Under the pieces are notes generated by a model. That model was not told where the DNA came from, did no database searches, and saw nothing but the letters and a program-made list of their open reading frames with translations. Below, in pieces: positions 11,732 through 32,369 of a stretch of DNA of 39,186 nt (position 1 is the first letter of the stretch; each line of letters opens with the position of its first letter). The stretch is taken from the IMG/VR virus record IMGVR_UViG_3300008110_000512, positions 1 to 39,186 of that record; one strand, given 5' to 3'. This stretch comes from a virus (Duplodnaviria; Caudoviricetes). The position numbers and the translations under genes are program-made.

Positions 11732-11760
11732 TTGACAGGCGTTGCAACCTGTGGCATACT
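11732..11760 (+). promoter_or_regulatory. Early promoter P1
   Basis: TTGACA, 17 nt, CATACT with TG extension; AT-rich upstream element. Confidence 0.8.
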
Positions 11761-11812
11761 GTGTCCATCGCCGCATCGGTCGGCACCGCACTCAGCACAG
11801 GAACGCAGCACC

Positions 11813-12124
11813 ATGATCCACGCCCTCACCGCTCTTGCCCTCCACGCCGTCACTCAGGACTGCACCCTCTCGCTCTTCTGCGATGGGTGCTGCGAGGTCA
11901 GGCGTACTCGTGACCACGAGGAGGTGCTCGACGCCGTCCGTGGGATCGACGGCACCTGCATGCTGCTCATTCGCAACGCAGCGGGTGAGGAGGTGGGGCG
12001 TGCATACGTCATGTGGCACGGTGAGGGCCTGTGCTCGCCAGACGAGACCGTCGTCGACTACCGCGGAGCGTTCATTGACGCATGGTGGAAGACGCATTTC
12101 AGCCACGAATGCGGCGACGAGTAA
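11813..12124 (+). CDS. Early hypothetical protein (103 aa)
   Basis: ATG after CACAGGAACGCAGCACC; first gene downstream of P1. Confidence 0.7.
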   Translation: MIHALTALALHAVTQDCTLSLFCDGCCEVRRTRDHEEVLDAVRGIDGTCMLLIRNAAGEEVGRAYVMWHGEGLCSPDETVVDYRGAFIDAWWKTHFSHECGDE

Positions 12125-12128
12125 ACGC

Positions 12129-12183
12129 CACGGATCCCCGCTACCTGCCGCGATGCGACCGCGGCAGGGTGCGAGCAACCGTG
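12129..12183 (+). repeat. Intergenic hairpin element H1 (ATGCGAC loop)
   Basis: Stem CCTGCCGCG/CGCGGCAGG around ATGCGAC (12153-12159), extended by an outer interrupted stem. Confidence 0.8.
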
Positions 12184-12216
12184 CTCACACAACGCAACAC
12201 CCACAGGAGTACACAC

Positions 12217-12324
12217 ATGTCCCGCCGCAACGCCACCTACCCGTCCCCGCTCGACGTCCTCATGGGCACCCTCACGTTCGTGATGCTGCTCGCCACCACG
12301 TGGTTCCTCGCATTCATCCTCTGA
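12217..12324 (+). CDS. 35-aa single-TM peptide, paralog A
   Basis: MSRRNATYPSPLDVLMGTLTFVMLLATTWFLAFIL; strong RBS CACAGGAGTACACAC. Confidence 0.7.
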   Translation: MSRRNATYPSPLDVLMGTLTFVMLLATTWFLAFIL

Positions 12325-12347
12325 CCCGCACCCACAGGAGTACAGCC

Positions 12348-12797
12348 ATGTCCTCGAATCACCCCACGTCCGACGCTGAGCGCATCAACCGCAGCACCGC
12401 ACACATCGACACCGTGCTAGACGGCTACTGCGTGGCCGCTCTGTGGTCCTCTTCCGACTGCGGCGATCCCGACTCCGATACCTCGCTTGAAGATCTTGGT
12501 TTCGCACCGTCCGATATCACGGACGAAACGCTCGCCGACATGCGGGCCACGGTCGAGCGGTTCGTTGCTGATAACTGGTCCGATATCGCGTCCCTGCTAG
12601 ATGACGGGTACACAGATTCGGACCTTGGGCACGACCTGTGGCTGAGCGCTCAGGGGCACGGAAGCGGTTTCTTCGACCGCGTCGGCAGCGGCCACCCGTC
12701 CCGCGATGCGTTCGACCGCTTGCAGGCCGCAGCGGACAGCGTGGGCGAAACGCACCTCTGCGTCACCGCAGACGGCGAGGGGGTGGAAGCCTTCTGA
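12348..12797 (+). CDS. Acidic early protein (AALWSS...GHDLWL...GHGSGFFDR family)
   Basis: 149 aa with RBS CACAGGAGTACAGCC; motif pattern recalled from other phage early proteins. Confidence 0.75.
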   Translation: MSSNHPTSDAERINRSTAHIDTVLDGYCVAALWSSSDCGDPDSDTSLEDLGFAPSDITDETLADMRATVERFVADNWSDIASLLDDGYTDSDLGHDLWLSAQGHGSGFFDRVGSGHPSRDAFDRLQAAADSVGETHLCVTADGEGVEAF

Positions 12798-12841
12798 TTT
12801 CCGCCAAATACAGAATCTTCGTGATTTCCTGTTGCAACCTG

Positions 12842-12894
12842 TTGACAGCGACCGAAACACCTGCCATACTCAACCCGTCGGCAACACCGCCGAC
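12842..12894 (+). promoter_or_regulatory. Early promoter P2 plus +1 hairpin
   Basis: TTGACA-17-CATACT, 6 nt, then GTCGGC-AACACC-GCCGAC. Confidence 0.85.
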
Positions 12895-12921
12895 CCCGCA
12901 CAACCCGAACGGATACAGCAC

Positions 12922-13479
12922 ATGAGCACCACTCACACCATCGACTGCGACCGCGCCGCCCTCACCGCCCACCTCACCGCCTGCCTCGAAGCCGACCGAA
13001 TCGAAACGAACGTCGCCCTCCTCGTGGCGAACGCAGTGCACGACTACCTGTCCGTGCAAGGCAAGCGCTTTGACAAGCGCGTCGCCGACCACGTCGGCCT
13101 CTGCCTTGCAAGCGCAGGTTTCGAGGGGGCGCAGGTCTGGTGGAAGAACTTCGAGGGTGTTACCAAGGAAGGCAACCGCTTCGAGGCGTGCTACCGCCTC
13201 AAGGGCACAGGCGAGTACAAGTCGTGCCGCGTCTACCGCAAGGGCACCACTGAGTACGGCGAGTGGTTCGAGAACTACAGCGATGGGCCGACGAAGTGCC
13301 ACGAGCGCCTGAATCGCATCGACGCCGCGGCGGACACGATCGACGCGATCGTCGACGGCATCATCGCGGTCCGCGTAGCCGAAGCCGCGCTCCGCTTTAC
13401 GCTCAACTACGATGGCCTGCACAACGAGATGCACCCGCTCGCCTATGAGGTCACAGAGGCCCGCGAGCGCCGACGCTGA
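12922..13479 (+). CDS. Early hypothetical protein (185 aa)
   Basis: MSTTHTIDCD... after GGATACAGCAC; consistent C-ending codon usage. Confidence 0.7.
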   Translation: MSTTHTIDCDRAALTAHLTACLEADRIETNVALLVANAVHDYLSVQGKRFDKRVADHVGLCLASAGFEGAQVWWKNFEGVTKEGNRFEACYRLKGTGEYKSCRVYRKGTTEYGEWFENYSDGPTKCHERLNRIDAAADTIDAIVDGIIAVRVAEAALRFTLNYDGLHNEMHPLAYEVTEARERRR

Positions 13480-13484
13480 GCGCC

Positions 13485-13541
13485 GACGGCAACCCGCTCG
13501 CCCTCCCCCCCACCCGTGGGGAGGGCCTGCGGGGGATCGTC
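13485..13541. repeat. Intergenic hairpin; inverted relative of H1/H3
   Basis: GCCCTCCCC/GGGGAGGGC stem. 13529-13541 is the exact reverse complement of 14767-14779. Confidence 0.7.
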
Positions 13542-13576
13542 CCCCACAACGCACAACCCGCACAGGAACACAGCAC

Positions 13577-14158
13577 ATGAGCAAGCCCGCATACAACCGC
13601 GCCTTCGAGATCGCCCACAGCACTGGCACCGCCGCCCACCTGCTCGCCACCCCGTGGGGCACGCCCAACACGGCCAAGGGGTCTCCTGTGTGGGTCGCCG
13701 ACGGCATCGTGTGGGTGACGACGCCATCGCACGGCGGCTACCTGCTCAGCCGCGAGCGCTTCATGTCCATGCCCGACACGCTCAAGGCGTTCTCGTTCGT
13801 CGGCACTGGCGCTCCGCAGGCGTTTGAAGAGGACTGCGCGTGGTGTGCCGTCCTACTCGCTTGGCCCTCACTGTTCGGCGCCTCGCAATTGTTCCACGCG
13901 GAACAGTGCGCCAAGCAGTGCAACCCGACGGAGTACGCGAAGTGGGTGGACGCGGGACGCCCGACCGCGGATCTCGATTGGGACGTGCACATCACCGCGG
14001 ACGAGATCCGCGCCATGGTCCGCGAGCAGGAGTACGACCTGACGCCCGCTCAGGCACAGGACGCCGCACGCCGCATCTCGTCCGCCCTGCTCGCCCTCAT
14101 CGCGAAGCACGCCGACGAGATCGCCGAAGCACAGGTGGCGCTTGTGGCCAATGCGTGA
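13577..14158 (+). CDS. DUF7007-like early protein with C-terminal helical extension
   Basis: TPWG...ADGIVWVTTPSHGGYLLSRER...FEEDCAW signature; 193 aa. Confidence 0.7.
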   Translation: MSKPAYNRAFEIAHSTGTAAHLLATPWGTPNTAKGSPVWVADGIVWVTTPSHGGYLLSRERFMSMPDTLKAFSFVGTGAPQAFEEDCAWCAVLLAWPSLFGASQLFHAEQCAKQCNPTEYAKWVDAGRPTADLDWDVHITADEIRAMVREQEYDLTPAQAQDAARRISSALLALIAKHADEIAEAQVALVANA

Positions 14159-14172
14159 CGTGACCCGCACAC

Positions 14173-14191
14173 AGGGCGATGCGACCGCCCT
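14173..14191 (+). repeat. Intergenic hairpin H2 (ATGCGAC loop)
   Basis: AGGGCG-ATGCGAC-CGCCCT followed by TTCCGTTT. Confidence 0.75.
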
Positions 14192-14241
14192 TTCCGTTTC
14201 CCGCCAATTTCAGAATCTCAACAGATTTCCGTTGCAACCTG

Positions 14242-14293
14242 TTGACACACCCCGAAACCGACGCTAGAGTGTGTCCATCGGCAACACCGCCGA
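14242..14293 (+). promoter_or_regulatory. Early promoter P3 plus +1 hairpin
   Basis: TTGACA-17-TAGAGT, GTGTCC, then A-TCGGC-AACACC-GCCGA. Confidence 0.85.
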
Positions 14294-14320
14294 GCACACA
14301 GCACACAAAGGAACACAGCC

Positions 14321-14764
14321 ATGCAGACCAACGCGAACTTCTCCGCCGCCCTCACCATGTTCAACCTCGCCGTCAAGCAGCACGCCATGTCGCAGGCCGC
14401 GTGGTCGATGGGCAACGACGCGAGTCAGGCGTGCGCCCACGTCAGCGATCTCGTGGACGTGCCATACGACACCGTGCGTCTCGCTTGCACCGAGTGCGCC
14501 CTCGTCTACCTCGACAAGCAGCGCCACGACGTGGCCCGCTCGACCTTCGGCGTGTGCCCTGCACTGCAAAACGTCAACGCTCCGACCGATACGATCGGCC
14601 ACCTCTTCCGCCGCTACCTGTTGGACGGACGGAATACCTCGTGGTCGACGTGGTTCGAGCGGAACCGCGCCGCCATCGCCACCGCCTACAGCGGCGTGGC
14701 AGGCGACGAACACGAGGACGCCGCATGGCTCGACGCGATCGGACGCACGTTGGCCTGCCGCTGA
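14321..14764 (+). CDS. Early hypothetical protein (147 aa)
   Basis: ATG after CAAAGGAACACAGCC. Confidence 0.7.
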   Translation: MQTNANFSAALTMFNLAVKQHAMSQAAWSMGNDASQACAHVSDLVDVPYDTVRLACTECALVYLDKQRHDVARSTFGVCPALQNVNAPTDTIGHLFRRYLLDGRNTSWSTWFERNRAAIATAYSGVAGDEHEDAAWLDAIGRTLACR

Positions 14765-14766
14765 GT

Positions 14767-14819
14767 GACGATCCCCCGCTACCCGCAGCATGCGACGCTG
14801 CGGGGTGCGGGCGACCGTC
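14767..14819 (+). repeat. Intergenic hairpin H3 (ATGCGAC loop)
   Basis: CCCGCAGC-ATGCGAC-GCTGCGGG, with outer flanks similar to H1. Confidence 0.8.
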
Positions 14820-14850
14820 GCCCACTATCACCAACGCAAAGGAACACAGC

Positions 14851-15195
14851 ATGATGCTTGCCACCGCAGACCTCACCGAAGATACCGAACTGGATCTTGC
14901 GATCGCATCCCGCAACCCCGTGATGGCCGAATGCGGCGCGATCGTGACGCACCCCGCGATCGTGCCCGACGCCAAGTACGCTGCGTGCCGCGTGGCCGCG
15001 GATGCGTGGCTCATGCAACTGGCTCGCGAGATGTCCGACCGCGGCAACTACGCCGCACAGGACGACAGCGTGCACATCGGGATCGCCCGTGTGGGCGACG
15101 CCTATCTCGCCACGTTCACGCAGGACGGCGAGCGCGTCGTGTCACTCGTCGGCATCAGCGCCGAAGCGTACGCCGCGTATCTGCCGCAGCGCTGA
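14851..15195 (+). CDS. Early hypothetical protein (114 aa)
   Basis: ATG after CAAAGGAACACAGC. Confidence 0.7.
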   Translation: MMLATADLTEDTELDLAIASRNPVMAECGAIVTHPAIVPDAKYAACRVAADAWLMQLAREMSDRGNYAAQDDSVHIGIARVGDAYLATFTQDGERVVSLVGISAEAYAAYLPQR

Positions 15196-15245
15196 TTCCG
15201 ATCCGAACCGATTTCAGAAACTTCACAGATTTCCGTTGCAAGGTG

Positions 15246-15298
15246 TTGACAGCACCCCAAACAGCCGATACAGTGTGTCCGTCGGCAACGTCGCCGAC
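15246..15298 (+). promoter_or_regulatory. Early promoter P4 plus +1 hairpin
   Basis: TTGACA-17-TACAGT, GTGTCC, then GTCGGC-AACGTC-GCCGAC. Confidence 0.85.
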
Positions 15299-15319
15299 AC
15301 AACCCACAGGAGTACAGCC

Positions 15320-15517
15320 ATGCAAGACAACGCCATCGTCATCACGGACCGCGAACTCAAGAGCACGCTCGCCATCGCCTCGAAGCGCCTTGGCTTGGTG
15401 CTCACCCACGAGCAGCAGGTCACGGCCATGCTTCATCTCGTCGCCGCTTGGGAGGACCTGATCTCCGAGAACATCAATCGTCTCGCTACCGAAGCCGTCA
15501 ACAAGACCGTCAACTAA
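15320..15517 (+). CDS. Early hypothetical protein (65 aa)
   Basis: MQDNAIVITDRELK... after CACAGGAGTACAGCC. Confidence 0.7.
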   Translation: MQDNAIVITDRELKSTLAIASKRLGLVLTHEQQVTAMLHLVAAWEDLISENINRLATEAVNKTVN

Positions 15518-15533
15518 CACAGGAGTACAGCAC

Positions 15534-15902
15534 ATGAGTCTTACCCCCATCCGCATCACCCCGACCACCGCATTCATCGACGCCGCGCTGCACAACGACC
15601 GCATCCGCCTCAAGCGCTACGGCTACACGATTGACCCTGCTAAGTTCATCCCCGCGGAAGACTGCTACGGCGACCGCATCAAGGTCCGCATCACGCAGGG
15701 ATCATGGTCCGCTGTGATTACCGCTGAGGACATCAGCGGCGCTGCCGACGGCGCTCCCGACTGGTACGCCGATGCCAAGGTCTGCTCGATGACTGCGGCG
15801 GGGGCCACGCTCGAAACCCTCAGCGACGACATCGAGGCGCTCACCCTGACCCGCGACGTGCTCCGCACCGTCTGCATCGCGATCGGCCAGAGCGTCGTCT
15901 GA
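15534..15902 (+). CDS. Early hypothetical protein (122 aa)
   Basis: ATG after CACAGGAGTACAGCAC. Confidence 0.7.
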   Translation: MSLTPIRITPTTAFIDAALHNDRIRLKRYGYTIDPAKFIPAEDCYGDRIKVRITQGSWSAVITAEDISGAADGAPDWYADAKVCSMTAAGATLETLSDDIEALTLTRDVLRTVCIAIGQSVV

Positions 15903-15916
15903 CCCACCCATTCACG

Positions 15917-15937
15917 GGGGGCGATGCGACCGCCCCC
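15917..15937 (+). repeat. Intergenic hairpin H4 (ATGCGAC loop)
   Basis: GGGGGCG-ATGCGAC-CGCCCCC. Confidence 0.75.
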
Positions 15938-15964
15938 GAACACACACAACACGAGAGAACACAC

Positions 15965-16072
15965 ATGCGCCGCTCCAACGACACCCCCACGACGCTCGAC
16001 CTCATCTGCGGCACGCTCTCGCTCGCCGCCCTGCTCGGTTCCTACTGGCTTCTCGCCGCCGTCCTCACCTAA
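15965..16072 (+). CDS. 35-aa single-TM peptide, paralog B
   Basis: MRRSNDTPTTLDLICGTLSLAALLGSYWLLAAVLT; absent from the ORF track; homologous to 12217..12324. Confidence 0.7.
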   Translation: MRRSNDTPTTLDLICGTLSLAALLGSYWLLAAVLT

Positions 16073-16097
16073 TTTCACACATTTCCACAGAATCCTG

Positions 16098-16150
16098 TTG
16101 ACACGGTAGCGATACCGCACTACAATCCCCCCATCGGCAACGTCGCCGAT
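16098..16150 (+). promoter_or_regulatory. Early promoter P5 plus +1 hairpin
   Basis: TTGACA-17-TACAAT, CCCCCC, then ATCGGC-AACGTC-GCCGAT. Confidence 0.85.
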
Positions 16151-17183: not shown

Positions 17184-17190
17184 CTCCGAC

Positions 17191-17233
17191 CGTCGGGGGG
17201 AGGGCATCCGCGTGGGTGCCCTCCCTTTCGACG
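17191..17233 (+). terminator. Long hairpin closing the early region (terminator or processing site)
   Basis: CGTCGGGGGGAGGGCATCC-GCGT-GGGTGCCCTCCCTTTCGACG; about 19 bp including G-U pairs. Confidence 0.55.
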
Positions 17234-22202: not shown

Positions 22203-25200
22203 TCACTGCGGCGAAGTCAAGTTGCGTCGCTCATTTCTTCGGCGAATCACGTCGCGCATCAACTGCATGCGCATCTCTCGCAACTGCTCCTTCTCCTCTG
22301 GCGTCTGCGCGGACCTGATCGCATCGCGCAGGTTGCGCATCGCGCGATCGGTCGCGCGGATCTGCGTGCCTTCCTCCGCCACGTCGAGGTCGAGTTTGCC
22401 GAGATTGCGCTGTGCCGCGTCAGGAGAACGCATCGCCTGCAAGCGCGCCTGCTCCACGCCTGCCTCGCCCTTGATCTTGTTGTACTCGGAGACGACGAAC
22501 TTGTCGTTCTCCGCGCTGGTGCCCATGAAGTCGCGCCTGATCGGGAAATCCCCGCTTTCCATCTCGCCAGTGGAGATGCCGTGCAGGCGCTGGAGCGTGC
22601 GTCCGAATCCACTGAACATGAAGCCGACCATGTACTCCAGCGTGTCGGGATGAATGTCCATCGCCGATAGCGCTGGCGGGTCGATCTCGTTCGCTCCGCC
22701 CATCTCCGCGAGACCCTCCGCCAACTGGCGGTAGATCTCTGGCGTGTTCTCGAACGCCTTGAATGCCTGCGTGGTCTCGGGGCCAAACGGCTGCTCGGGA
22801 TGGATCGCCCGTCCAGCGAAGTCGCTGTTGAATGCGAGTTCGGGGAACCAACGCATCAGCGTCGGGAACGCGAACGACACCATGTTCTCCATGCCCTTGG
22901 TCACGCCGCTGCCGCCGAAGGCGTTCAGGTAGTTCAGGCTGTTGTCCACGAAGTTCGCGACCACGTCGCCTGCCGTGGTTCGATTGCCGAACACGGCGTC
23001 AGCGATGTCGCTGCCGAGCGTGGTGAACACGTTGAACCCGTACGCCTGCGGGCTGCGGACGTAGTTTCCGTTCTGCCGTGGATCGTACAGGTACAGGTAC
23101 GCCGCCTTGTCGTACGGCGACTCCATGTCCCATCGGTTCATGCCCGTCTCTTCGTCGTCGCCCGCGTTCAAGCGCGCGATGAGCGACTGCATGAATCCGA
23201 TGGCGACCAGAGTGGGGGCCAGTTCCTTGGCGGCACCGAGCGCCTTGAGCGTGTTCGTGCTGCCTTGGATGCTGGCATTCATGTAGAGGTGCGTGCGGTT
23301 CAGCACGCGCATCCACGCGCCCTTCTTGCCGAAGTCGACGGTGACGTCGCGAGCGCTCAGCGCCGCCTGTTCGTCGGTCATCGGTCCACCGCGCGCGAAC
23401 CTGCTCACGCGCTGGTTGAAGTGAGCCAAACGGGTCGCCGTCTCCGCCGCCTTGAACAGCGAGGGATACCAACCGACCGCGTAGCGGATCATGCTGGTCG
23501 CGTCTGGGTTGCGGTTGCGCACGCTGCGCTCGATGGCCTCGAACTGCTCGACCTTCTCGGTCAGGTCATTGCCACGGGCGAACGACATGTCTCCGCCTGC
23601 GTCGACGAACCGCTCATACGAACCAGTCGGGCCAGTGCCGCGCCACTCGTCGACCAGAATGCGGAAGAACGACGGCACCCAACGAACCGTCTGCGCCGTC
23701 GTGTCCAGAATCCCGTTGCGGGCGTAGTTCTGCAACGTGCCCGTGTAGAGGTCGCGGATCAGGTTCTTCGTGGCGAACGCTGGCGCGAGCAATCCAGTCG
23801 TCATGCTGCGGAACAGGTTGTTCGGCGCATTGAACACGTCCATCAGGCCAGTCAGATCCTGAGCCGCGATCATGCCGTCTGCCAGACGGCGGTTGTTGAT
23901 CTGGATGACCACGAGATCGCCCTGACGGTACTGCTCCCCGTCGATCATCATGTCGGCGTCGAGGAACAAGCCGAAGTTGCGCTTGCCCGCCTCGCCACTC
24001 ATCCAGTCGTAGTCGAACACGGGGCGCACTTCGCCATCGACGTTCACGCGACGGCTCGGTCTGATGACCTGAGCCATGCCGACGTCGTTCGTCGCGAGGA
24101 CCAGACGAAGGAAACGGTTCGCCACCCTGTTGCGCTCGACGCGGCGCACCGTGTCCTCGGCCACGAATCCGACCTGCGACGTGACCGCCTCGGCCCGCGA
24201 CTGACGTCCGAGCGCACGCGGCATGCCGCGCCCCTGCGTGGACAGGCCGCGACCGAATGCAGTCTGACCCTCGAAGTCCTCATCGAACGGCTCCGCGGGG
24301 CGACCGCGCAGCGGGACGTAGTGCTGGTAGGTGCTGGTCAGGCGGTCGTAGGTCGCCTGCGTAATGATCCCTGACACCAGACGGTCGAGGAGACCGTCGC
24401 GCAGGATCTCGCGCCACTCGGTGGCGTAGGCGTCCATGATGCCGAACGTTCCACCCGCCCTGTGGTTGGCGAGCAACAGGTCCGCGTCGGCGTTGGTCAT
24501 TCCAGAGCCCCCGTCGGGCATCGCGGGGTTGATGCTGGCGATGTAGGCGTTCCGCTCGCGCGCGTGCTGCGCCGTGAGGAACTGGTCCATCATGCCAGTG
24601 TCGATGCCCTGCTGGTTCATGCGGTAGATCAGCGAGCCGTAACGTCGTTCCAGACGGCCAACCTGAGCGCCGATGCGGGCGCTCATCACGCGCGATCCCT
24701 GATACGGGTTCAGCGCGTCGGGCATGTTGCCAGAACGGCGTCGGCGGTCCTGCTCCGTGTAGCGGCGCAGTTCGATCCGTTCGTCCGTGAACCGCTGGCG
24801 GATGGCGTCCGTCAAGCCGACCAATCCGCGGCGCATGCTGAACATCGGGTACAACTGGCCCGACTTCGCCGCCTCGATCAGCCTGTCGGACAGGATGACC
24901 TGCATGCGCGGCATGTCGCCGTACGGTCGGATGGGCTCGACGGGTTGGCTTTGCCCTTCTTCTGGCTTCCTCGGGATCTGGTAGGTTTCATACACGACTG
25001 GTGCGTCGAAGTCGCTGAAGAAGGACTCGGCGTACGAACGCAGCATGCCCTTCTCGTTCGCCTTCTTGGCGGCGATCGCCGCCTTGCGCCGTTCGATCGC
25101 AGGATCAAGTCGGGCTTTCTTCTTCGCAGTGCCGACTGTCTTCAGATACTCCATCGTCTCGACGACGTCCCAACCGTACAGGGAAGCCGCCTTGTCCGCG

Positions 25201-28200
25201 TCCATGTACGATGCGTTTGGCGTCTCCTCTGGTCTGGTGAACGCAATCCGATTTCCAGCCTGCGCCCCATTCGCCACCGCTTCCATGACGGCAGAGGACA
25301 GCACTGCGTACATCCAGTCGTTCGTCGGAACAAGACGCTGGTCCTTGTACGTCGATGCAAGAGGAGCGGCATACGGTCTGGCTCCTCCGATCTCCTTGTC
25401 AATCACCATGCCGAGAGTCGTCTTCTCGCGCATCGGTCCGTCTGGCGTTCCGAAAATATTATTCCACGTTGAATCCTCGAATGGCACTTTCCTATTGCCA
25501 TCACGGGCAAGATCAACGGTGTTGAAATGGGCCTTCGCGATATTCTTCATGTCCCGCGCGAAGTTCTCGGCGAATGCCGACGCTTGGGTATGGAATGCGG
25601 ATTGGGCCGCATGTATCTTCCGCTGTCGAACAAGTTCCCTTGGCGTCCTGTTACTGCCGACCTGCACGTCGATTGCGCCCTTGCCTCGAATCAACCCGTA
25701 CTCAAGCATCAGAACCTTGGCATCGTTGACATCGGTGACGGTGAACCTCGGGGACGTGATGCGACCATCAACGGACCTCTCCGCGATCGCCATCGCCACG
25801 AGCGCCCCGAAGTTCGCCCGATTGGCTGACAGTCTGGCCTTCGACTTCCTGCTGTTGATGTAGTTCCTAGCAACGGATCTGGCCGCGGATTCAATGGCGC
25901 GGGCGACGCCATTCAACGTGTCGTAGTCTTGGAAGTCGCGCGCCTCATCGAACCGAGAATAGAGAACGGCATCGACAGCATCGAACTCCAAAGCGAGTTT
26001 CTTCACGACTCCTCTGGTGTCAATGAACGGGTTGTCAAGATCAAGCGTCGTGTTTCGGTAGTTCCACTGGACGTCTCGGTCATACTTCCGTGCCAACTTC
26101 ACAGCGTCAGCCATCGCCTTTCTCTCTTTTTCGCTTAGGCTGTTGATGGCGATGTTCAGGATCGGATACGAAATGGAAACGTCGCGCTGGGGTTCCAGCC
26201 TGTTCGTTGCCGCCGCCTCTCTGCGCAGTTGCGTTGCGAGGTCTTGTTCAAGTTCGCCAAATTGAAAATCATCTGGAGCGACTGGGTTCAACTCCGATGC
26301 CGCGGTGTCAAATGCTTCCTGTAACGCATCGGTCTGCTCTCTGGTCAGATCTCCGATCGTATCCAGAACCGTTCCGCCAACCAATTCGGTTATCGCGTTC
26401 GCTTGCGATCCAAATGCGATCTCCGAAGACAACCTTTCCGCGAATGCCTTTGCAGCAGGCATCGCCTGATTGAACGTGTCGGCCTTGAGTTGCGCTGGTT
26501 CGTACGCAATCTGGTCCGTGGACGTCAGTTCAATGTCCCATGTGTTCAACTTGCTTCGCAAGAAATCTGACAGCGCGCTCTCAGTGAACATCGAATCCAG
26601 AGATCCACCAGCCCGCTCGACTGCTTCCTCGAACATTTGCGCGGCTGCGCCTGCCGCATTCATGCGGTAATTTGCATCCATCAAACTCTTGTGGTCCGCG
26701 CCAGACAACAGCGACTTATTACCGAGCGCGGCCTTCGCTTCATTCGCATGACCCATGCTCACGGTATTTGGGATGGATGTATCGAATGCCGAAAACTCCA
26801 TTGCTCGCTCGATGTAGTCGAACTCGGAAAGCCTGTCAGCGGCAATGCCTCTGGTAGCCATCTCGTTGTGCAGAATACTCTGCACCTCCTCGATGACCAC
26901 GTTCCTGCTCGGATCTGGAATACCGTCCTCGATCACCGCTCCCTGCGGTATCTGCTTGTCCATGTTCGGAAACGAAAGGCGGTAGTGCCCGACGATGTTT
27001 ACAACATCGAAGTGAGCACTTGGTGCCTCTATGTATAGCGGATCAGTGCGCGACACACGTTCCTGACGTTCACTCGCCCTCTGTGCCGTGATGGACGACT
27101 GCGCTGGACCGAATATGGTCGGACGGGAAGCCAACTCGGCTGCTTCCGTCGTTCCAACGGTCCCCGTCATTTGATTGAACGGGATCGGAGACGTGATGTC
27201 TCCGTAGTTCAATTTGATGCCGACCTCCGCGTAGTCGCGATTCTTTTCCTTGAAAGCATCTCCGCGGTACTCGGAAAACTTATCTCCGAGATCTGCGGTG
27301 ATCGACTCGATGGGAATGGCCGCATCCATCTCCGCGAGGAATTGGAGAGCGGTGAGTTTCGGTGCAGACGGAGATGCGACGGGCGCAGTCTCGAATCCGA
27401 GCGGATTCTTGAACAGCCACGGCATCAGGAAGCGCGCTTGATCCTTCGGAAGACCGCGAGTCGCCATCCACTGGGCCCACTCGTCCGTCGTCTGAATGTT
27501 CTTCGTCACGCCGACAATGGGCTTCTTGGCCGCAACGGCGTCGCGCAGTTCCTGCTTGAGATCGCCGAACCTGCTTCGGAACGGATTGTCTACTCCACGA
27601 GTATCAGTCGGGTCTAGGTTCCCGACGGTGAACCTCGGGTTGCCCTCCTGCGCGCCGCGCTGCGGGTTCAGTCGGATGTCGACCTGCGACGGCGGCTGCT
27701 GCTCGCGCATGGAGAACATCATGCGCGGATCGGCGGTCGGGTTCGCGTTGAAGTAGCCCTTGACTTGGTTCGGTTCAAAGGCGACATACACACCATTGCC
27801 CATGTCAACGCCGTCAAATCCCTGACGGCGCAACTTGTCGAAGACACGGGCCTGCGCGAGCGCGTAGTTCTGCGATGTTTCGAGTAACTTCTTGTCCTCT
27901 GTCGAGACATCCCTGTAGTAGTTGGCGGGGTTCTTCAGGTTGAGGACTGCGGGAATGACTCGCGATGCAGTATTGGTTCGGCGTGAAGCCCAAGGATCTG
28001 TTTGTGTCGGCTCTCTCTTGAATCCCATGCTGTCGTTCTGCATGGCATACATAGATGCGTCTTGAGGATTGGTTGTGAACCACGCCCCGCGCTTCCCGAT
28101 TCTGAACTTGTTGAAGTCCTTGTCCTTCGATGTTCCGTGATACACGGGAATGAGAGCGCCGTTCTCGTCCACAACCTTCGATCCAGCACTCCATGACTGC

Positions 28201-31200
28201 ATCGCAGGAGTCATCTCCTGCTGCGCGATCGGACGAAGGGAGAAGCGGGCGCCGCGGTATGGGGCTAGCCCTGCGACTCCCTTTTCCAGAGCCTCGAATG
28301 GAACGTCGTCGAACATGCGCCGTCCAGCGGTGTCTTCCACCGTGAACGACTGCCGCCAGACGGTTTCGCCTTCCGTCTCGTACAACTGGTCTGCCACGCG
28401 CCTGAGCGCCTCATCGCTGAGGGATGGGAACTGGAGGTTGTTTCCGAGAACTCGGACCCAACCCTTTGCCAGACCGTAGTCCCTGTTGTCGCGGAGTTGA
28501 CCCGTCACGGAGTCGATCATCAACTTGAACTGCGCGCGCTGGTCCTCAGACTGCTTCGCCGACTCCTTTTCCGACCACGCGGCAACGGCATCAATGTCCT
28601 TTCCAATGGCCTTGAGCGCCTCCTCGCGAACGCGAGAAGGATCAAAGCCACCGCCATCGTTGCCTTCGTCGACGAACTTGTCGAACTCCGCCGCGCGGAT
28701 CTTGAACGCCTTGCTCTTGGACTTCTCCGCCTTGCGAAGCAGGTAGTTCCTGAAGTCGTTCACGGCTTCGTTGGCCGCGATCATCTCGTGGTTCATGTCG
28801 CCGACATCTCCGTCAGCGAACTGCGGACCGTCCTGCGTCATCCACCACTCGCCGCGAAGATTCCGACGTGTGGAGAACATCGCCGTCGGTTCCTGCGGTG
28901 CAGCAGGCTGCTCCACAGGTGCCGTCTCTGCTTGCGGTACCGCCGATCCCTGCTGTGCTCGTGCACGGGCCTGCGGCTGCATCACCCCGCTGGGAATGAC
29001 CTGAGCGGAGACGCCTGCAAGCGCTTGAAGCGCGCTGACGGCGGTGGGAACGATAGCAGGGAGAGTCCCGCCAGCCTCTCCCTGATCCTTCTTCTCCTCC
29101 TCATCGGGAGGAACCGCGGCCTTTCCAGCCATAGCCGCCTGCTTCTCGGCCCCGCGCATGGATGCCGTCGCTCCTGCGGCCTGTGCGGAAGCCGCGGTGA
29201 CGGCGTCGCCTTCCTGCACACCCTGCTGTCGCAACTGAGCCTCGTACTCCGCCGCCTCGCGCATGTTCTTCTCGTACTGCGCCATCGCCGACTTGCGGTA
29301 CTGGGCGTCCAGAGTGAGGTTCGCCTCGCGCACGCCGCGCGCGCGCTGACCGAACATGTCGAGGACCGCCTTCGCGTGCTTTCCGAAGAAGCCACGCTTG
29401 TGAAGGGCATTCGACAGCCACGCGAGGAACTTGCGCGACTGCGCTCCCTCCGTCTGGCGGTAGGCGTTCTCATGCTCCGACGCGAGGGCGGTCGTCGTGC
29501 CCATCGTCTGCGTCGCGGTCTCGGCCACCGTCTCCTCGGCGAAACGCTCGACCACTGCCATCTCGCCCTGTGCTTGCTGGCGCGCCTCAGCCGTCTGCGT
29601 GGTGTCTCCGAGCACGCGCTGCGCGGCCTCGTACCGCGCGATCATGTCGTTGATGACCTCGGCATCGCTCGCGTTCGCGACCATCGGGTTGTAGCGCCGC
29701 CAGTAGGCGGCACCAGCGCGCAGCGAGAACACTGGGTCCATGTTGAACAGCAGGTTCATCCAGTGTGCGCCGCCTCGGCTGCGGTAGATGCCGCGGTGCA
29801 TGCCCTCGTGCGTCGCCGCGACGAATGCGCTGCGGAACGTCATGGCATCGCCGTTCTCTCGGATCAGGAAAACGCCATCGGCACTGGTCTGGCCGCTGTA
29901 GACTCCGTCCATCGGGATGTCGACGACCCGCGTTTCCCCGTTCTCCGTGATCTCGACGCTGCCATCGAGGATCGTCGCGGGGTTGCCAGCGTTCGCCAAC
30001 TGGCGCTCGCCTTCGCTCAGGTTCTTGGCCGAGACTGGCTTGAGATTGACCTTGACCTTTCCGCTGAACGGCGTCGGCGTGAACGTCTCGCCATTGGCTT
30101 CGGCCTCGGCCTGAGCCTGCTGCTGCTGCTGCTGGTGCTTCTCCATCAGCGCCCGCATGACGTGCGCCTGAATGTCGCCCTTCAGGTTCTGGACCGATGC
30201 CAGAACGTCTGGGCGTGTCGCCACGTTCGAGGTGCGAGGCTTTCCGCCTGCGTTCACCCTGTCGATGTCCAACTGGGCGTTGATCGTGTCGGACAAATAC
30301 TTGGAGTCCTGACTGGACACCTCGCCGACGGTCAGACCGCTCATGTTGGCGCGAGCCTCCAGAGCCGTGTTGACCGCATCCTTGTTCGCGCCGATGCCGT
30401 AGGGCACGATCTCCACGATCTGTCCACCAGCATTTCGGAGGACGAACGCGCCAGCAACGGCCTCGTTCGGTCCGACGTAGTTCGGGAGTCCTGTGATGAA
30501 CTGGGTGTTGCCAGTCTTCGCGGCCTCCATCACGTCGTTCGCCATCGCGTCCGCTGTGTAGTACAGCAGGTTGCCCTGACGGACTGGGTTCTTGACGTTG
30601 ATGCCTGCGGCATCCATGTCTGCCTTGACCTCGTCGGACAGCGTGACGTCGCTATGACGGGCGTCGACGATGACGGCCATGCGTCGGCCAGACCTGTAGT
30701 CCTCCAACTGCTGCTGGGCCATCGAAACGCCGAGCGCTGGCTGAGACATGCCGCTCAAGCGCTGGAGAGCGTTCTTGTCGGTGATCTGGTCAAGCACGCG
30801 CGTGACGATCGCCGCCGCCTTGGTGCGACCGATCTGGATGTCCTCTCCCTTGCGCTTGGCCTTCTGCGCCGCCATCGCGCCGACGCCAGTCACGCCGCCA
30901 GCGGCGAACGCCACGGGAGCGACCTCGATCGACTCGTTCCAGAACCGCGCCAAGGACGCATCGTCGTAGACCGTGTCGATCATCGCCGTCTGGGCGGCGA
31001 TGTTTCCGATCTCCTCAAGCGTCTCGACCGCGCCGACCTTTCCGATCGTGCCCGTCGCCTTGACCGCGCTGACGACGCCGCGCGTTCCGAGTGGCGAGGA
31101 CAATCCTTCAAGCATGTTTCGCGACAGGCGACCCGTGGTGTCCGCTCCGACAGCCGCGGCATGCTTGCCGCCACGCTGCGCCATGTTGGCCGCGCGCGAG

Positions 31201-32369
31201 CCCTTCGACGCGAGAATCGCCAACTCGAATGCGTTTCCGATGCCCTCGGACAGAGTCTCCGATACGGCACCCGTTCGTCCAGCGATGCGCTGCTGCGAGG
31301 CAGTCGGTGGCTTGGGCGCTTCCCTGCCCTCCATGCTCGCGCGCTGCTTCGCCTCCTCGTACCGCTGCTCAAGACGGGCTTGACCAGACTCGTAGCCCAT
31401 AGGGGCGAACATCGCCAGCCATGCGGGATTGGCCATCGCGGGCGCGGAGACGGCCACGGTTCCAGCCACGGTGCCCGCGAACTTTCCGACCCCGCTGCTG
31501 TCCTGAAGGACATCGCTCTTCAGGTTCCTGTTCATCGGATCGAATGGCTCCTCGAACTGGCTGACCGCGCCAACCAGACCTCCAGACACAGTCGGAGACG
31601 TCATCACCGCTGTGCGGTATGCGCCCATGACCGACCGCTGCACGCCTTCTCGGAACTCCTTGTTCTCCCCGAATCGCTCGGGCGCGTTCATGTAGTCGAT
31701 CTTCCGCTGGAGTTCCGCGGGGATCTCTGGCATGGGGTACGCCGCGTCGATCGCCGCGTCGTCCTTGTACTTGACGTCTTTCATCGTCCACGGCTTGCCG
31801 CGAACGGGATCGACGAAGTTCCTGCTCGCGAGATTGCGGATCCGCTGCTGCTGGCGACGCTCGGCATCGCGCAGACGCTGCGCTTCCTGACGTTGAATGT
31901 TGATGATGTCGAACTGATCCAGTTCCGTCTTGCTTGGGTAGTTCTCGTCCAACGCCGAACGGCTCTGGTCGAATACGAAAGACGCGGATCCTCCAATCAA
32001 GGATTGCGCCGCGCCTTCGATCACGCGGTACGTCCCGCCGACGAGATCGCTCATCTCGGCTTGGACAGCACCACGCTTGTTATTGCTCCAGTCGTCGAAC
32101 GACATGACTGGAAAGTCGTTGAGGTATGCCGACGCGCGGTATGACGCATATGCGTCTGGCCGACCAGCGGCAATCGCCTCTTCCCTCAGAATCCTGCGGC
32201 GTTCTGAGCGAATCTTGTCTTCAAGACCATCGAACGCCTTGCTCCAGTCTGGCGAATCGCGCATGACTCCACGCGACTCAAGCCACGACTGCGTGGCCTG
32301 AGCATTTCGGTCGATGTCCTTGTAGATGCCCTCGAACAGACCGTCGTCGATGAAGTCGTTGTTCTGCAT
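22203..32369 (-). CDS. Giant ejected polyvalent protein (zincin protease, ART-like, LPD38-like)
   Basis: 3388 aa, last gene of the ejection cluster. HEGMH...EETVAE; VYHGT...WFTTNP...LNLKNP...GFDGV...VAFEPNQVK; C-terminal DVTVDF...YMNASIQG region. Confidence 0.85.
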   Translation of the reverse strand: MQNNDFIDDGLFEGIYKDIDRNAQATQSWLESRGVMRDSPDWSKAFDGLEDKIRSERRRILREEAIAAGRPDAYASYRASAYLNDFPVMSFDDWSNNKRGAVQAEMSDLVGGTYRVIEGAAQSLIGGSASFVFDQSRSALDENYPSKTELDQFDIINIQRQEAQRLRDAERRQQQRIRNLASRNFVDPVRGKPWTMKDVKYKDDAAIDAAYPMPEIPAELQRKIDYMNAPERFGENKEFREGVQRSVMGAYRTAVMTSPTVSGGLVGAVSQFEEPFDPMNRNLKSDVLQDSSGVGKFAGTVAGTVAVSAPAMANPAWLAMFAPMGYESGQARLEQRYEEAKQRASMEGREAPKPPTASQQRIAGRTGAVSETLSEGIGNAFELAILASKGSRAANMAQRGGKHAAAVGADTTGRLSRNMLEGLSSPLGTRGVVSAVKATGTIGKVGAVETLEEIGNIAAQTAMIDTVYDDASLARFWNESIEVAPVAFAAGGVTGVGAMAAQKAKRKGEDIQIGRTKAAAIVTRVLDQITDKNALQRLSGMSQPALGVSMAQQQLEDYRSGRRMAVIVDARHSDVTLSDEVKADMDAAGINVKNPVRQGNLLYYTADAMANDVMEAAKTGNTQFITGLPNYVGPNEAVAGAFVLRNAGGQIVEIVPYGIGANKDAVNTALEARANMSGLTVGEVSSQDSKYLSDTINAQLDIDRVNAGGKPRTSNVATRPDVLASVQNLKGDIQAHVMRALMEKHQQQQQQAQAEAEANGETFTPTPFSGKVKVNLKPVSAKNLSEGERQLANAGNPATILDGSVEITENGETRVVDIPMDGVYSGQTSADGVFLIRENGDAMTFRSAFVAATHEGMHRGIYRSRGGAHWMNLLFNMDPVFSLRAGAAYWRRYNPMVANASDAEVINDMIARYEAAQRVLGDTTQTAEARQQAQGEMAVVERFAEETVAETATQTMGTTTALASEHENAYRQTEGAQSRKFLAWLSNALHKRGFFGKHAKAVLDMFGQRARGVREANLTLDAQYRKSAMAQYEKNMREAAEYEAQLRQQGVQEGDAVTAASAQAAGATASMRGAEKQAAMAGKAAVPPDEEEKKDQGEAGGTLPAIVPTAVSALQALAGVSAQVIPSGVMQPQARARAQQGSAVPQAETAPVEQPAAPQEPTAMFSTRRNLRGEWWMTQDGPQFADGDVGDMNHEMIAANEAVNDFRNYLLRKAEKSKSKAFKIRAAEFDKFVDEGNDGGGFDPSRVREEALKAIGKDIDAVAAWSEKESAKQSEDQRAQFKLMIDSVTGQLRDNRDYGLAKGWVRVLGNNLQFPSLSDEALRRVADQLYETEGETVWRQSFTVEDTAGRRMFDDVPFEALEKGVAGLAPYRGARFSLRPIAQQEMTPAMQSWSAGSKVVDENGALIPVYHGTSKDKDFNKFRIGKRGAWFTTNPQDASMYAMQNDSMGFKREPTQTDPWASRRTNTASRVIPAVLNLKNPANYYRDVSTEDKKLLETSQNYALAQARVFDKLRRQGFDGVDMGNGVYVAFEPNQVKGYFNANPTADPRMMFSMREQQPPSQVDIRLNPQRGAQEGNPRFTVGNLDPTDTRGVDNPFRSRFGDLKQELRDAVAAKKPIVGVTKNIQTTDEWAQWMATRGLPKDQARFLMPWLFKNPLGFETAPVASPSAPKLTALQFLAEMDAAIPIESITADLGDKFSEYRGDAFKEKNRDYAEVGIKLNYGDITSPIPFNQMTGTVGTTEAAELASRPTIFGPAQSSITAQRASERQERVSRTDPLYIEAPSAHFDVVNIVGHYRLSFPNMDKQIPQGAVIEDGIPDPSRNVVIEEVQSILHNEMATRGIAADRLSEFDYIERAMEFSAFDTSIPNTVSMGHANEAKAALGNKSLLSGADHKSLMDANYRMNAAGAAAQMFEEAVERAGGSLDSMFTESALSDFLRSKLNTWDIELTSTDQIAYEPAQLKADTFNQAMPAAKAFAERLSSEIAFGSQANAITELVGGTVLDTIGDLTREQTDALQEAFDTAASELNPVAPDDFQFGELEQDLATQLRREAAATNRLEPQRDVSISYPILNIAINSLSEKERKAMADAVKLARKYDRDVQWNYRNTTLDLDNPFIDTRGVVKKLALEFDAVDAVLYSRFDEARDFQDYDTLNGVARAIESAARSVARNYINSRKSKARLSANRANFGALVAMAIAERSVDGRITSPRFTVTDVNDAKVLMLEYGLIRGKGAIDVQVGSNRTPRELVRQRKIHAAQSAFHTQASAFAENFARDMKNIAKAHFNTVDLARDGNRKVPFEDSTWNNIFGTPDGPMREKTTLGMVIDKEIGGARPYAAPLASTYKDQRLVPTNDWMYAVLSSAVMEAVANGAQAGNRIAFTRPEETPNASYMDADKAASLYGWDVVETMEYLKTVGTAKKKARLDPAIERRKAAIAAKKANEKGMLRSYAESFFSDFDAPVVYETYQIPRKPEEGQSQPVEPIRPYGDMPRMQVILSDRLIEAAKSGQLYPMFSMRRGLVGLTDAIRQRFTDERIELRRYTEQDRRRRSGNMPDALNPYQGSRVMSARIGAQVGRLERRYGSLIYRMNQQGIDTGMMDQFLTAQHARERNAYIASINPAMPDGGSGMTNADADLLLANHRAGGTFGIMDAYATEWREILRDGLLDRLVSGIITQATYDRLTSTYQHYVPLRGRPAEPFDEDFEGQTAFGRGLSTQGRGMPRALGRQSRAEAVTSQVGFVAEDTVRRVERNRVANRFLRLVLATNDVGMAQVIRPSRRVNVDGEVRPVFDYDWMSGEAGKRNFGLFLDADMMIDGEQYRQGDLVVIQINNRRLADGMIAAQDLTGLMDVFNAPNNLFRSMTTGLLAPAFATKNLIRDLYTGTLQNYARNGILDTTAQTVRWVPSFFRILVDEWRGTGPTGSYERFVDAGGDMSFARGNDLTEKVEQFEAIERSVRNRNPDATSMIRYAVGWYPSLFKAAETATRLAHFNQRVSRFARGGPMTDEQAALSARDVTVDFGKKGAWMRVLNRTHLYMNASIQGSTNTLKALGAAKELAPTLVAIGFMQSLIARLNAGDDEETGMNRWDMESPYDKAAYLYLYDPRQNGNYVRSPQAYGFNVFTTLGSDIADAVFGNRTTAGDVVANFVDNSLNYLNAFGGSGVTKGMENMVSFAFPTLMRWFPELAFNSDFAGRAIHPEQPFGPETTQAFKAFENTPEIYRQLAEGLAEMGGANEIDPPALSAMDIHPDTLEYMVGFMFSGFGRTLQRLHGISTGEMESGDFPIRRDFMGTSAENDKFVVSEYNKIKGEAGVEQARLQAMRSPDAAQRNLGKLDLDVAEEGTQIRATDRAMRNLRDAIRSAQTPEEKEQLREMRMQLMRDVIRRRNERRNLTSPQ

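Follow-up and report, generated by a model that had tools for sequence, protein, structure and literature searches.

In the 39,186-bp phage record IMGVR_UViG_3300008110_000512 (the whole stretch of DNA analyzed, hereafter the window), four intergenic hairpins, H1 to H4, present the same seven-nucleotide ATGCGAC loop on different stems. Together with their counterparts in other phage contigs, they apparently represent a real phage RNA motif, undescribed so far, which has a strict loop and a wide but patchy distribution. The explanation that we favor, with a probability of about 0.45 based on sequence comparison, is that the hairpin acts as a punctuation or stabilizing element of early mRNA, akin to the PeSL stem-loops of T4-like phages, and that its loop likely serves as the recognition site of a host factor.

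All four hairpins described in an earlier note on this DNA, with identical loops at 12153, 14179, 14790, and 15924, are present and have perfectly paired stems (Table 1). The ATGCGAC heptamer itself is not enriched in the window (8 seen vs 10.85 expected), and the four occurrences outside H1–H4 have stems of two pairs at most; a single loop recurring four times on stems of at least six pairs was obtained in none of 300 dinucleotide shuffles (the maximum was three, reached once; loops of 5–10 nt). The position of 20–30 nt after a stop codon proposed in the note agrees with the measured distances, the loops of H1, H2, H3, and H4 starting 28, 20, 25, and 21 nt and their stems 19, 14, 17, and 14 nt downstream of the stop codons, respectively. 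The H1 stem has predicted pair probabilities of 0.99–1.0 in its context, and H2 is predicted to be out-competed if 60 nt of upstream coding RNA are left free (pair probability of 0.04). A sequencing run, X1, which is probably DNA and is not evidence on expression, spans H1; six differences are listed upstream, and the covered part of the stem-loop shows no difference. Two claims of the note had to be narrowed. The stems, said to be fully covarying, do covary at all eight pairs across relatives, but within the window the covariation is only partial because H1, H2, and H4 have their inner three pairs (GCG/CGC) in common, with five common pairs in H2 and H4. Similarly, the outer arms attributed to H1 and H3 are genuine shared flanks, but pairing in their 3′ part is better explained by a hairpin of its own, P3: in the alignment of eight long forms, P3 read as its own hairpin has 100% of cells paired, with both-sided changes in two of five pairs, vs 69.7% of cells when the same flank is read as an outer arm.

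Scans with a 17-mer covering H2 and H4 and with a 19-mer yielded 60 stretches in viral contigs and 99 in metagenome contigs, respectively. Upon removal of duplicates and restriction to sites with an open frame ahead of the hairpin and a tail poor in G, the set comprised 120 to 126 distinct sites, depending on the analysis, many of which come from related strains and hence are not independent events. Copies outside the search 17-mer display 14 different stems among 20 copies. In 24 copies chosen by hand to represent diverse stems, with pairing as a further criterion, a set that leans toward structure, all eight stem pairs show both-sided changes (63 cells; 0 of 500 shuffles). A less biased test considered every unselected ATGCGAC heptamer in 20 whole contigs: stems of at least five pairs were found at six of six post-stop occurrences (four of which are H1 and H3 in the window and in the near-identical G034), at 0 of 71 inside called genes, and at 1 of 18 other intergenic ones.

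The loop is under unusually strict constraint. When positions 1–3 were freed, ATG occupied 36 of 91 distinct contexts, the next class, GCT (n = 17), being a single coding family, and no single-base variant was seen in the family context in the 55 of 64 parts scanned. With positions 4–7 freed after TGAC, 25 of 31 matches read ATGCGAC, one read ATGCGGC in the family context, and five were unrelated; AAGCGAC, in L292, is a further variant. When only the H1/H3 flanks were specified, eight of nine matches belonged to the family, and each of these eight, one of them from G034, which is nearly identical to the window, combined ATGCGAC with a new stem; the three loci from flank-only scans lie on contigs already known and add nothing independent. 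Covariance-model scores are bimodal, at least 26 bits or at most 18, the exception being one antisense look-alike at 23.8, and no decayed copies were found. Two other candidates were set aside: ATTCGAC in G039, which is in antisense orientation, and the GTGCGAC matches in L103 and L172 (43–45% GC), treated as unrelated.

The stems begin 5–26 nt (median of 10) past the stop codon on the sense strand and never overlap it (n = 120). Their length is 6–9 bp in 123 of 126 copies, and the long forms reach 11–12 pairs when counted across the 2×2 internal loop. The tails are pyrimidine-rich, and a U-tract (at least 5 U in 8 nt) follows the stem in 21 of the 126 copies and in one of the four in the window, namely H2, the sole window copy with a terminator-like U-rich tail; a canonical intrinsic terminator was rejected on these counts. 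A promoter stands directly behind 13 of 126 copies (a lower bound from a strict regular expression) and, in the window, behind H2 alone; 2 of the 13 have a U-tract. Most copies sit ahead of a promoterless gene, and leading straight into another gene in this way argues against efficient termination. A readthrough or selenocysteine insertion sequence-like recoding signal was likewise rejected, with no bias in stop codons (TGA 94, TAA 25, and TAG 1 vs a background of 585, 193, and 68) or in the frame of the next ATG (38, 24, and 29 in frames 0, 1, and 2). In long forms, an upstream UCC(U) motif is found in 33 of 59 spacers of at least 12 nt, from few lineages, and pairing of this motif with the Shine-Dalgarno (SD) sequence is predicted in some long forms only.

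The 20 whole carrier contigs form groups with few or no common proteins: window-like podophages, ~35-kb phages with a Mu-type portal, ~53-kb PolA phages, and G002, G003, and G007 (44–48% GC), which have 0–1 protein clusters in common with other carriers. The widest protein cluster covers at most 12 of the 20 contigs. The first three groups have some small genes in common, which suggests a common gene pool. No protein spanning all carrier groups, A to E, was detected by phmmer (E < 1e-3; 841 small proteins from 14 records, among which G002 is a fragment; very diverged small proteins may escape). Contigs contain one to four copies, with a single copy in a 156-kb record. In the G002 lineage (L010:6572(−), L304:367(+), L292:4954(−), L351:2097(+)), one copy lies inside a larger conserved multi-hairpin element with two more, covarying-looking stems downstream. 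Cultured phage DNA gave no match at the hairpins, the six matching records all being hit through one 38-nt piece elsewhere. Rfam 15 gave no match in the window and otherwise only chance snoRNA matches (E of 1.2 and 4.2) in flanks or off the hairpins. No description of the loop was found in the literature; comparative RNA surveys could include one in their supplementary motif tables. The view of the hairpins as an undescribed element gains support from a sequence-constrained loop on a covarying stem and from the Rfam result.

Comparison of equivalent sites places the motif in a wider class. The general feature is a hairpin behind the stop codon, and the ATGCGAC loop is one lineage-spanning version of it, because relatives of the window and seven of eight DUF932 genes carry other hairpins. 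The early region of L004, syntenic with the window, has long post-stop hairpins, two of them with H1/H3-like flanks, under other loop caps. That of L002 (G049) has another kind of long hairpin behind stop codons, present four times, with flanks GATCCAAC...CTGATC and caps GCAA or TCGC (UCGC in RNA). Behind DUF932, the ATGCGAC hairpin follows one of eight genes; among the seven different hairpins, four have a CsrA-type ACGGAC loop. These CsrA-consensus hairpins, of the GGCC-ACGGAC-GGCC type and intergenic, occur behind DUF932 in G024, G027, G041, and G042, and also in G037 and G044. The commonest of the other post-stop loops (n = 86) are TTCG (6) and GAAA (5), both stable loops. Another hairpin, at L252:8675-8711 (G039, ~28690), combines a 12-bp stem with a sense loop GTCGAAT between a stop codon and a promoter; we take it to resemble a tRNA T-arm minihelix.

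The ATGCGAC hairpin is also a gene-cassette boundary. In 145 hairpin contexts, some of them chance matches, 88 upstream and 79 downstream flank types occur in 99 combinations, and two gain/loss events map to the hairpin. In L067, the order is gene X, hairpin, gene Y, hairpin, gene Z; in L047 and L028, X is joined to Z, 342 bp are missing, and the junction falls within an overlap of ~31 nt that contains the hairpin. The same pattern distinguishes L313 from L358, a short contig end, over 269 bp. It should be noted that either event may be a gain or a loss and that misassembly across the repeat is possible. Between the window and G034, a gene is inserted at the SD box behind H4, outside the hairpin. 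Repeated copies of the hairpin likely provide patches of homology through which genes are shuffled, in the manner of PeSLs.

In the window, matches to the terminase, portal, and major head protein and a 3388-aa LPD38/ART-PolyVal protein are all encoded on the minus strand, and the plus-strand arm (11.8–22 kb) encodes small ORFans, DUF932, an exonuclease VIII-like gene, RecT, and RusA. H1–H4 are located within the plus-strand early cassette array. Between 10500 and 23000, seven sigma70-like promoters were found vs 1.5 expected, five of them on the plus strand. A second hairpin family (TCGGC-AACACC/AACGTC-GCCGA) stands right behind four of five promoters (12877-12894, 14278-14293, 15281-15298, 16133-16150), and a palindrome, GTTGCAAC, which is a possible repressor operator, adjoins several −35 boxes (11742-11749, 12830-12837, 14230-14237). 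Paralogous hydrophobic 35-aa peptides (12217-12324, 15965-16072) are encoded directly downstream of H1 and H4, and a similar peptide precedes DUF932 in L004. Other carrier phages have intergenic GC-A...C-GC hairpins with the loops AGGTC (13) and ATGTC (4); among sense intergenic loops, the A..C-closed class is the largest (65 vs 31 for the runner-up). The 3388-aa polyvalent protein (22203-32369, minus strand) has ART-PolyVal and LPD38 domains and an HExxH motif at 854, with no sequence match in PDB. No endolysin family was matched among the scanned proteins of the window, G024, G028, and G033 (part of the open reading frames (ORFs)), a possible sign that the host envelope is unusual.

Table 1 Hairpins and promoter matches located in the window
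Feature	Position	Strand	Description
H1	12144..12168	+	9-bp stem CCTGCCGCG; AUGCGAC loop 12153-12159; 19 nt past the stop of ORF 11813-12124
H1, long form	12139..12186	+	3-bp P1 (12139-12141/12171-12173); 2×2 internal loop UA/GU; P3 hairpin GAGCA-ACCG-UGCUC (12173-12186)
Long post-stop hairpin	13483..13542	+	No ATGCGAC loop; arms like those of H3, swapped
H2	14173..14191	+	6-bp stem AGGGCG; AUGCGAC loop (start 14179); followed by UUCCGUUU, then a promoter
H3	14782..14804	+	8-bp stem CCCGCAGC; C-G closing pair; AUGCGAC loop 14790-14796
H3, long form	14777..14823	+	P1; 2×2 internal loop; P3 hairpin GGGCGA-CCG-UCGCCC (14809-14823)
H4	15917..15937	+	7-bp stem GGGGGCG; AUGCGAC loop (start 15924); 27 nt ahead of a 35-aa ORF
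Long post-stop hairpin	17190..17231	+	Behind DUF932; contains G-U pairs; no ATGCGAC loop
Five sigma70-like promoter matches	11732..16126	+	Define the early cassette array with H1–H4; −35 at 11732, 12842, 14242, 15246, 16098

How might such a hairpin function? On early mRNA, it would mark and protect the ends of segments. The stem, beginning at least 5 nt (median of 10) behind the stop codon, would lie just past the terminating ribosome and stay folded during translation; the sense orientation and this clearance of the ribosome footprint point to action at the RNA level. The hairpin would then block 3′-to-5′ decay of the upstream cistron or weakly pause the polymerase, as suggested by its interchangeability with TTCG and GAAA hairpins and by the promoterless genes downstream, and most transcription would continue into the next gene, usually without a promoter of its own. 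The AUGCGAC loop would be read by a host-encoded factor, since no phage protein tracks with the hairpin. A putative fold for it is an A·C pair and a bulged U beneath a GCGA, GNRA-type turn; GNRA-like folds are known in penta- and hexaloops, and the available part of the source does not mention heptaloops (PMC12550061).

A more specific version holds that AUGCGAC is the binding site of an RNA-binding factor (in decay, transcription, or anti-phage activity) of an uncultured bacterial group, acquired separately by unrelated phages and spread as a mobile cassette boundary, a host-specific signal with no phage-encoded partner. We regard this as possible but rather doubtful. Read-loop phage hairpins of the boxB type usually have their protein partner encoded by the phage that carries them; here the loop is common to podophage-like, Mu-portal, PolA-type, and large tRNA-bearing phages, and the lack of a detected common protein across these unrelated carriers points to a host reader or an unrecognized stable loop fold. 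The motif may also be a marker by which unrelated uncultured phages can be grouped by host. Even if it were only a PeSL-like attenuator, it would still constitute a new RNA motif family with ~120 aligned sites.

Several observations speak against a punctuation hairpin with a host-read loop. A plain stabilizer needs no invariant loop. Relatives with ~80% terminase identity (G049, L004, L005) have no ATGCGAC loop, and for G049 the covariance model found no match in 40 of 41.5 kb, so that the loop is either dispensable or host-specific; conservation in related phages, on which the earlier note had staked its case, thus holds across distant lineages and fails among close relatives. If a host factor reads the loop, host copies of the hairpin might be expected, and the 19-mer was not seen in the family context in 185,579 bacterial and archaeal genomes (GTDB; 14 scattered matches, judged by eye). 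A host terminator or repetitive extragenic palindromic element was rejected on the same search, which covers the 19-mer stem only: the 14 matches were judged to be chance, and one (L081) may be intergenic. Furthermore, no G-U pairs were seen inside the family stems, and in L423, a sense C·A mismatch would be a wobble pair on the opposite strand, which together keep a DNA reading alive. The antisense strand also folds better than the sense strand, at −39.7 vs −31.9 kcal/mol for H1 and −44.2 vs −39.8 kcal/mol for H3. The first pair below the stem is not strand-decisive (G-U 21, A-C/C-A 22).

It is unlikely, in our judgment, that the hairpin is a PeSL-type terminator or attenuator lacking a U-tract, its loop kept by descent and gene conversion instead of by a reader. 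According to the available part of its description, a polyG/polyC PeSL stem-loop cut lacZ expression like a strong terminator (PMC2839356), and the U-rich tail of H2 ahead of a promoter, the pyrimidine-rich tails, and the copies at recombination junctions fit such a role; the scarcity of U-tracts, even before promoters, and the promoterless genes behind most copies do not. Moreover, the loop outlives complete stem turnover, which leaves ~7–11 identical nt, likely too few for gene conversion, and the gap in covariance-model scores has no decayed copies to fill it. Antitermination, which the note had also proposed, here as a signal that is boxB/put-like or controls pausing and has host Nus factors or RNA polymerase as its reader, would account for an invariant loop on a stem, the design of boxB, whose GNRA-like loops are read by protein in the available part of one account (PMC12550061), and for the UCC(U) motif of the long forms. 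We consider it quite improbable: boxA, as given in the available part of PMC2724277, was found in 0 of 126 spacers with up to one mismatch allowed, and no N-like or other phage protein common to the carriers was detected, so the lambda type lacks support. In addition, the copies lie at gene ends and not in leaders, and five promoters in 4.4 kb of the window leave little read-through to be needed.

No better odds attach to a decoy, or sponge, for a host RNA-binding or defense protein such as a diverged Csr-like protein or an anticodon nuclease. Having a U as its second and a purine as its sixth nucleotide, the loop presumably resembles an anticodon loop reading GCG, a weak likeness expected about once in eight by chance. 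An invariant loop on strongly promoted early transcripts, and canonical ACGGAC loops at the same post-DUF932 site in four of eight related genes, would suit a decoy; nevertheless, the sponge proposed in the note fails in the CsrA case, as CsrA requires A(N)GGAX in the part of the source available (PMC4005645) and AUGCGAC lacks GGA. The low copy number per contig is a further point against it. Finally, the signal could reside in DNA, as a single-stranded or cruciform hairpin used in recombination or by a polymerase. Integron attC sites and N4 virion-polymerase promoters are DNA-hairpin signals of this kind. The better-folding antisense strand, which closes to a triloop, the pure Watson–Crick stems, and the cassette junctions at the hairpin are in its favor. 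It is nonetheless the least probable of the readings and, to us, very unlikely: the coding end is never overlapped, and such spacing from stop codons points to an RNA rather than a single-stranded DNA role; the variant ATGCGGC retains a U-G pair on the sense strand only (n = 1); and most carriers have no giant protein, and no recombinase common to the carriers was detected. An N4-type virion RNA polymerase promoter was rejected, since a regular-expression search with what we take to be the polymerase motifs found neither a DFDGD-type motif nor a complete single-subunit set in the 3388-aa protein.

Among known systems, the closest are the PeSLs of the T4-like phages RB49/phi1, PST/T4, and nt-1/KVP40 (PMC2839356, PMC4122927), whose stem-loops are described, in the available part of the first source, as polyG/polyC, post-stop, and recombinogenic (PMC2839356). 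As far as these accounts go, the two have in common post-stop stem-loops with G/C runs among small early ORFans, repeated sigma70 promoters, SD boxes, and gain/loss junctions, but PeSLs are composites of promoter and stem-loop with stems conserved within one phage pair, whereas here the loop is invariant, the stems turn over, the lineages are unrelated, and an adjacent promoter is mostly missing. The ATGCGAC hairpin is found, as PeSLs are, as an intergenic post-stop stem-loop among early ORFans and at a site of gene excision or insertion, without the joined sigma70-like promoter in most cases (present at 1 of 4 window copies and, as a lower bound, 13 of 126). By this analogy, it appears to work most like the PeSL stem-loops, apart from the promoter composite. 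The intercistronic C(UUCG)G hairpins of T4 and GNRA-capped stabilizer hairpins likewise place a fixed loop on variable stems between genes. The ATGCGAC hairpin is interchangeable with TTCG, GAAA, and GCAA hairpins at equivalent sites but differs in its 7-nt loop, in which UGCG lacks the C-G closing that a UNCG tetraloop needs, and in that ATGCGAC with the commonest stem was not seen in the family context in bacterial genomes. Lambdoid boxB, in the parts of PMC2724277 and PMC12550061 available, similarly belongs to an early operon and has a short stem whose loop is read by sequence, but our hairpin occurs without boxA or a cognate phage N protein and in unrelated phages. Like T7 R1.1-type RNase III hairpins, the H1 and H3 long forms and the neighbors at 13483 and 17190 are irregular helices that lie between genes of the early region. 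In the available part of its description, E. coli RNase III requires a helix of 11 bp and is indifferent to the sequence of the loop (PMC1540722); the long forms reach this length only across the 2×2 loop, and the short forms, with their invariant loop, fall below it. The CsrA/RsmE sites described in the available part of PMC4005645 resemble the hairpin in a loop that starts with A and ends with GAC, with true ACGGAC loops at equivalent sites in relatives, but differ in having GGA and a C-G closing pair, ours being mostly G-C. Early-region intercistronic hairpins are a known kind of element, and what appears to be new is the ATGCGAC loop.

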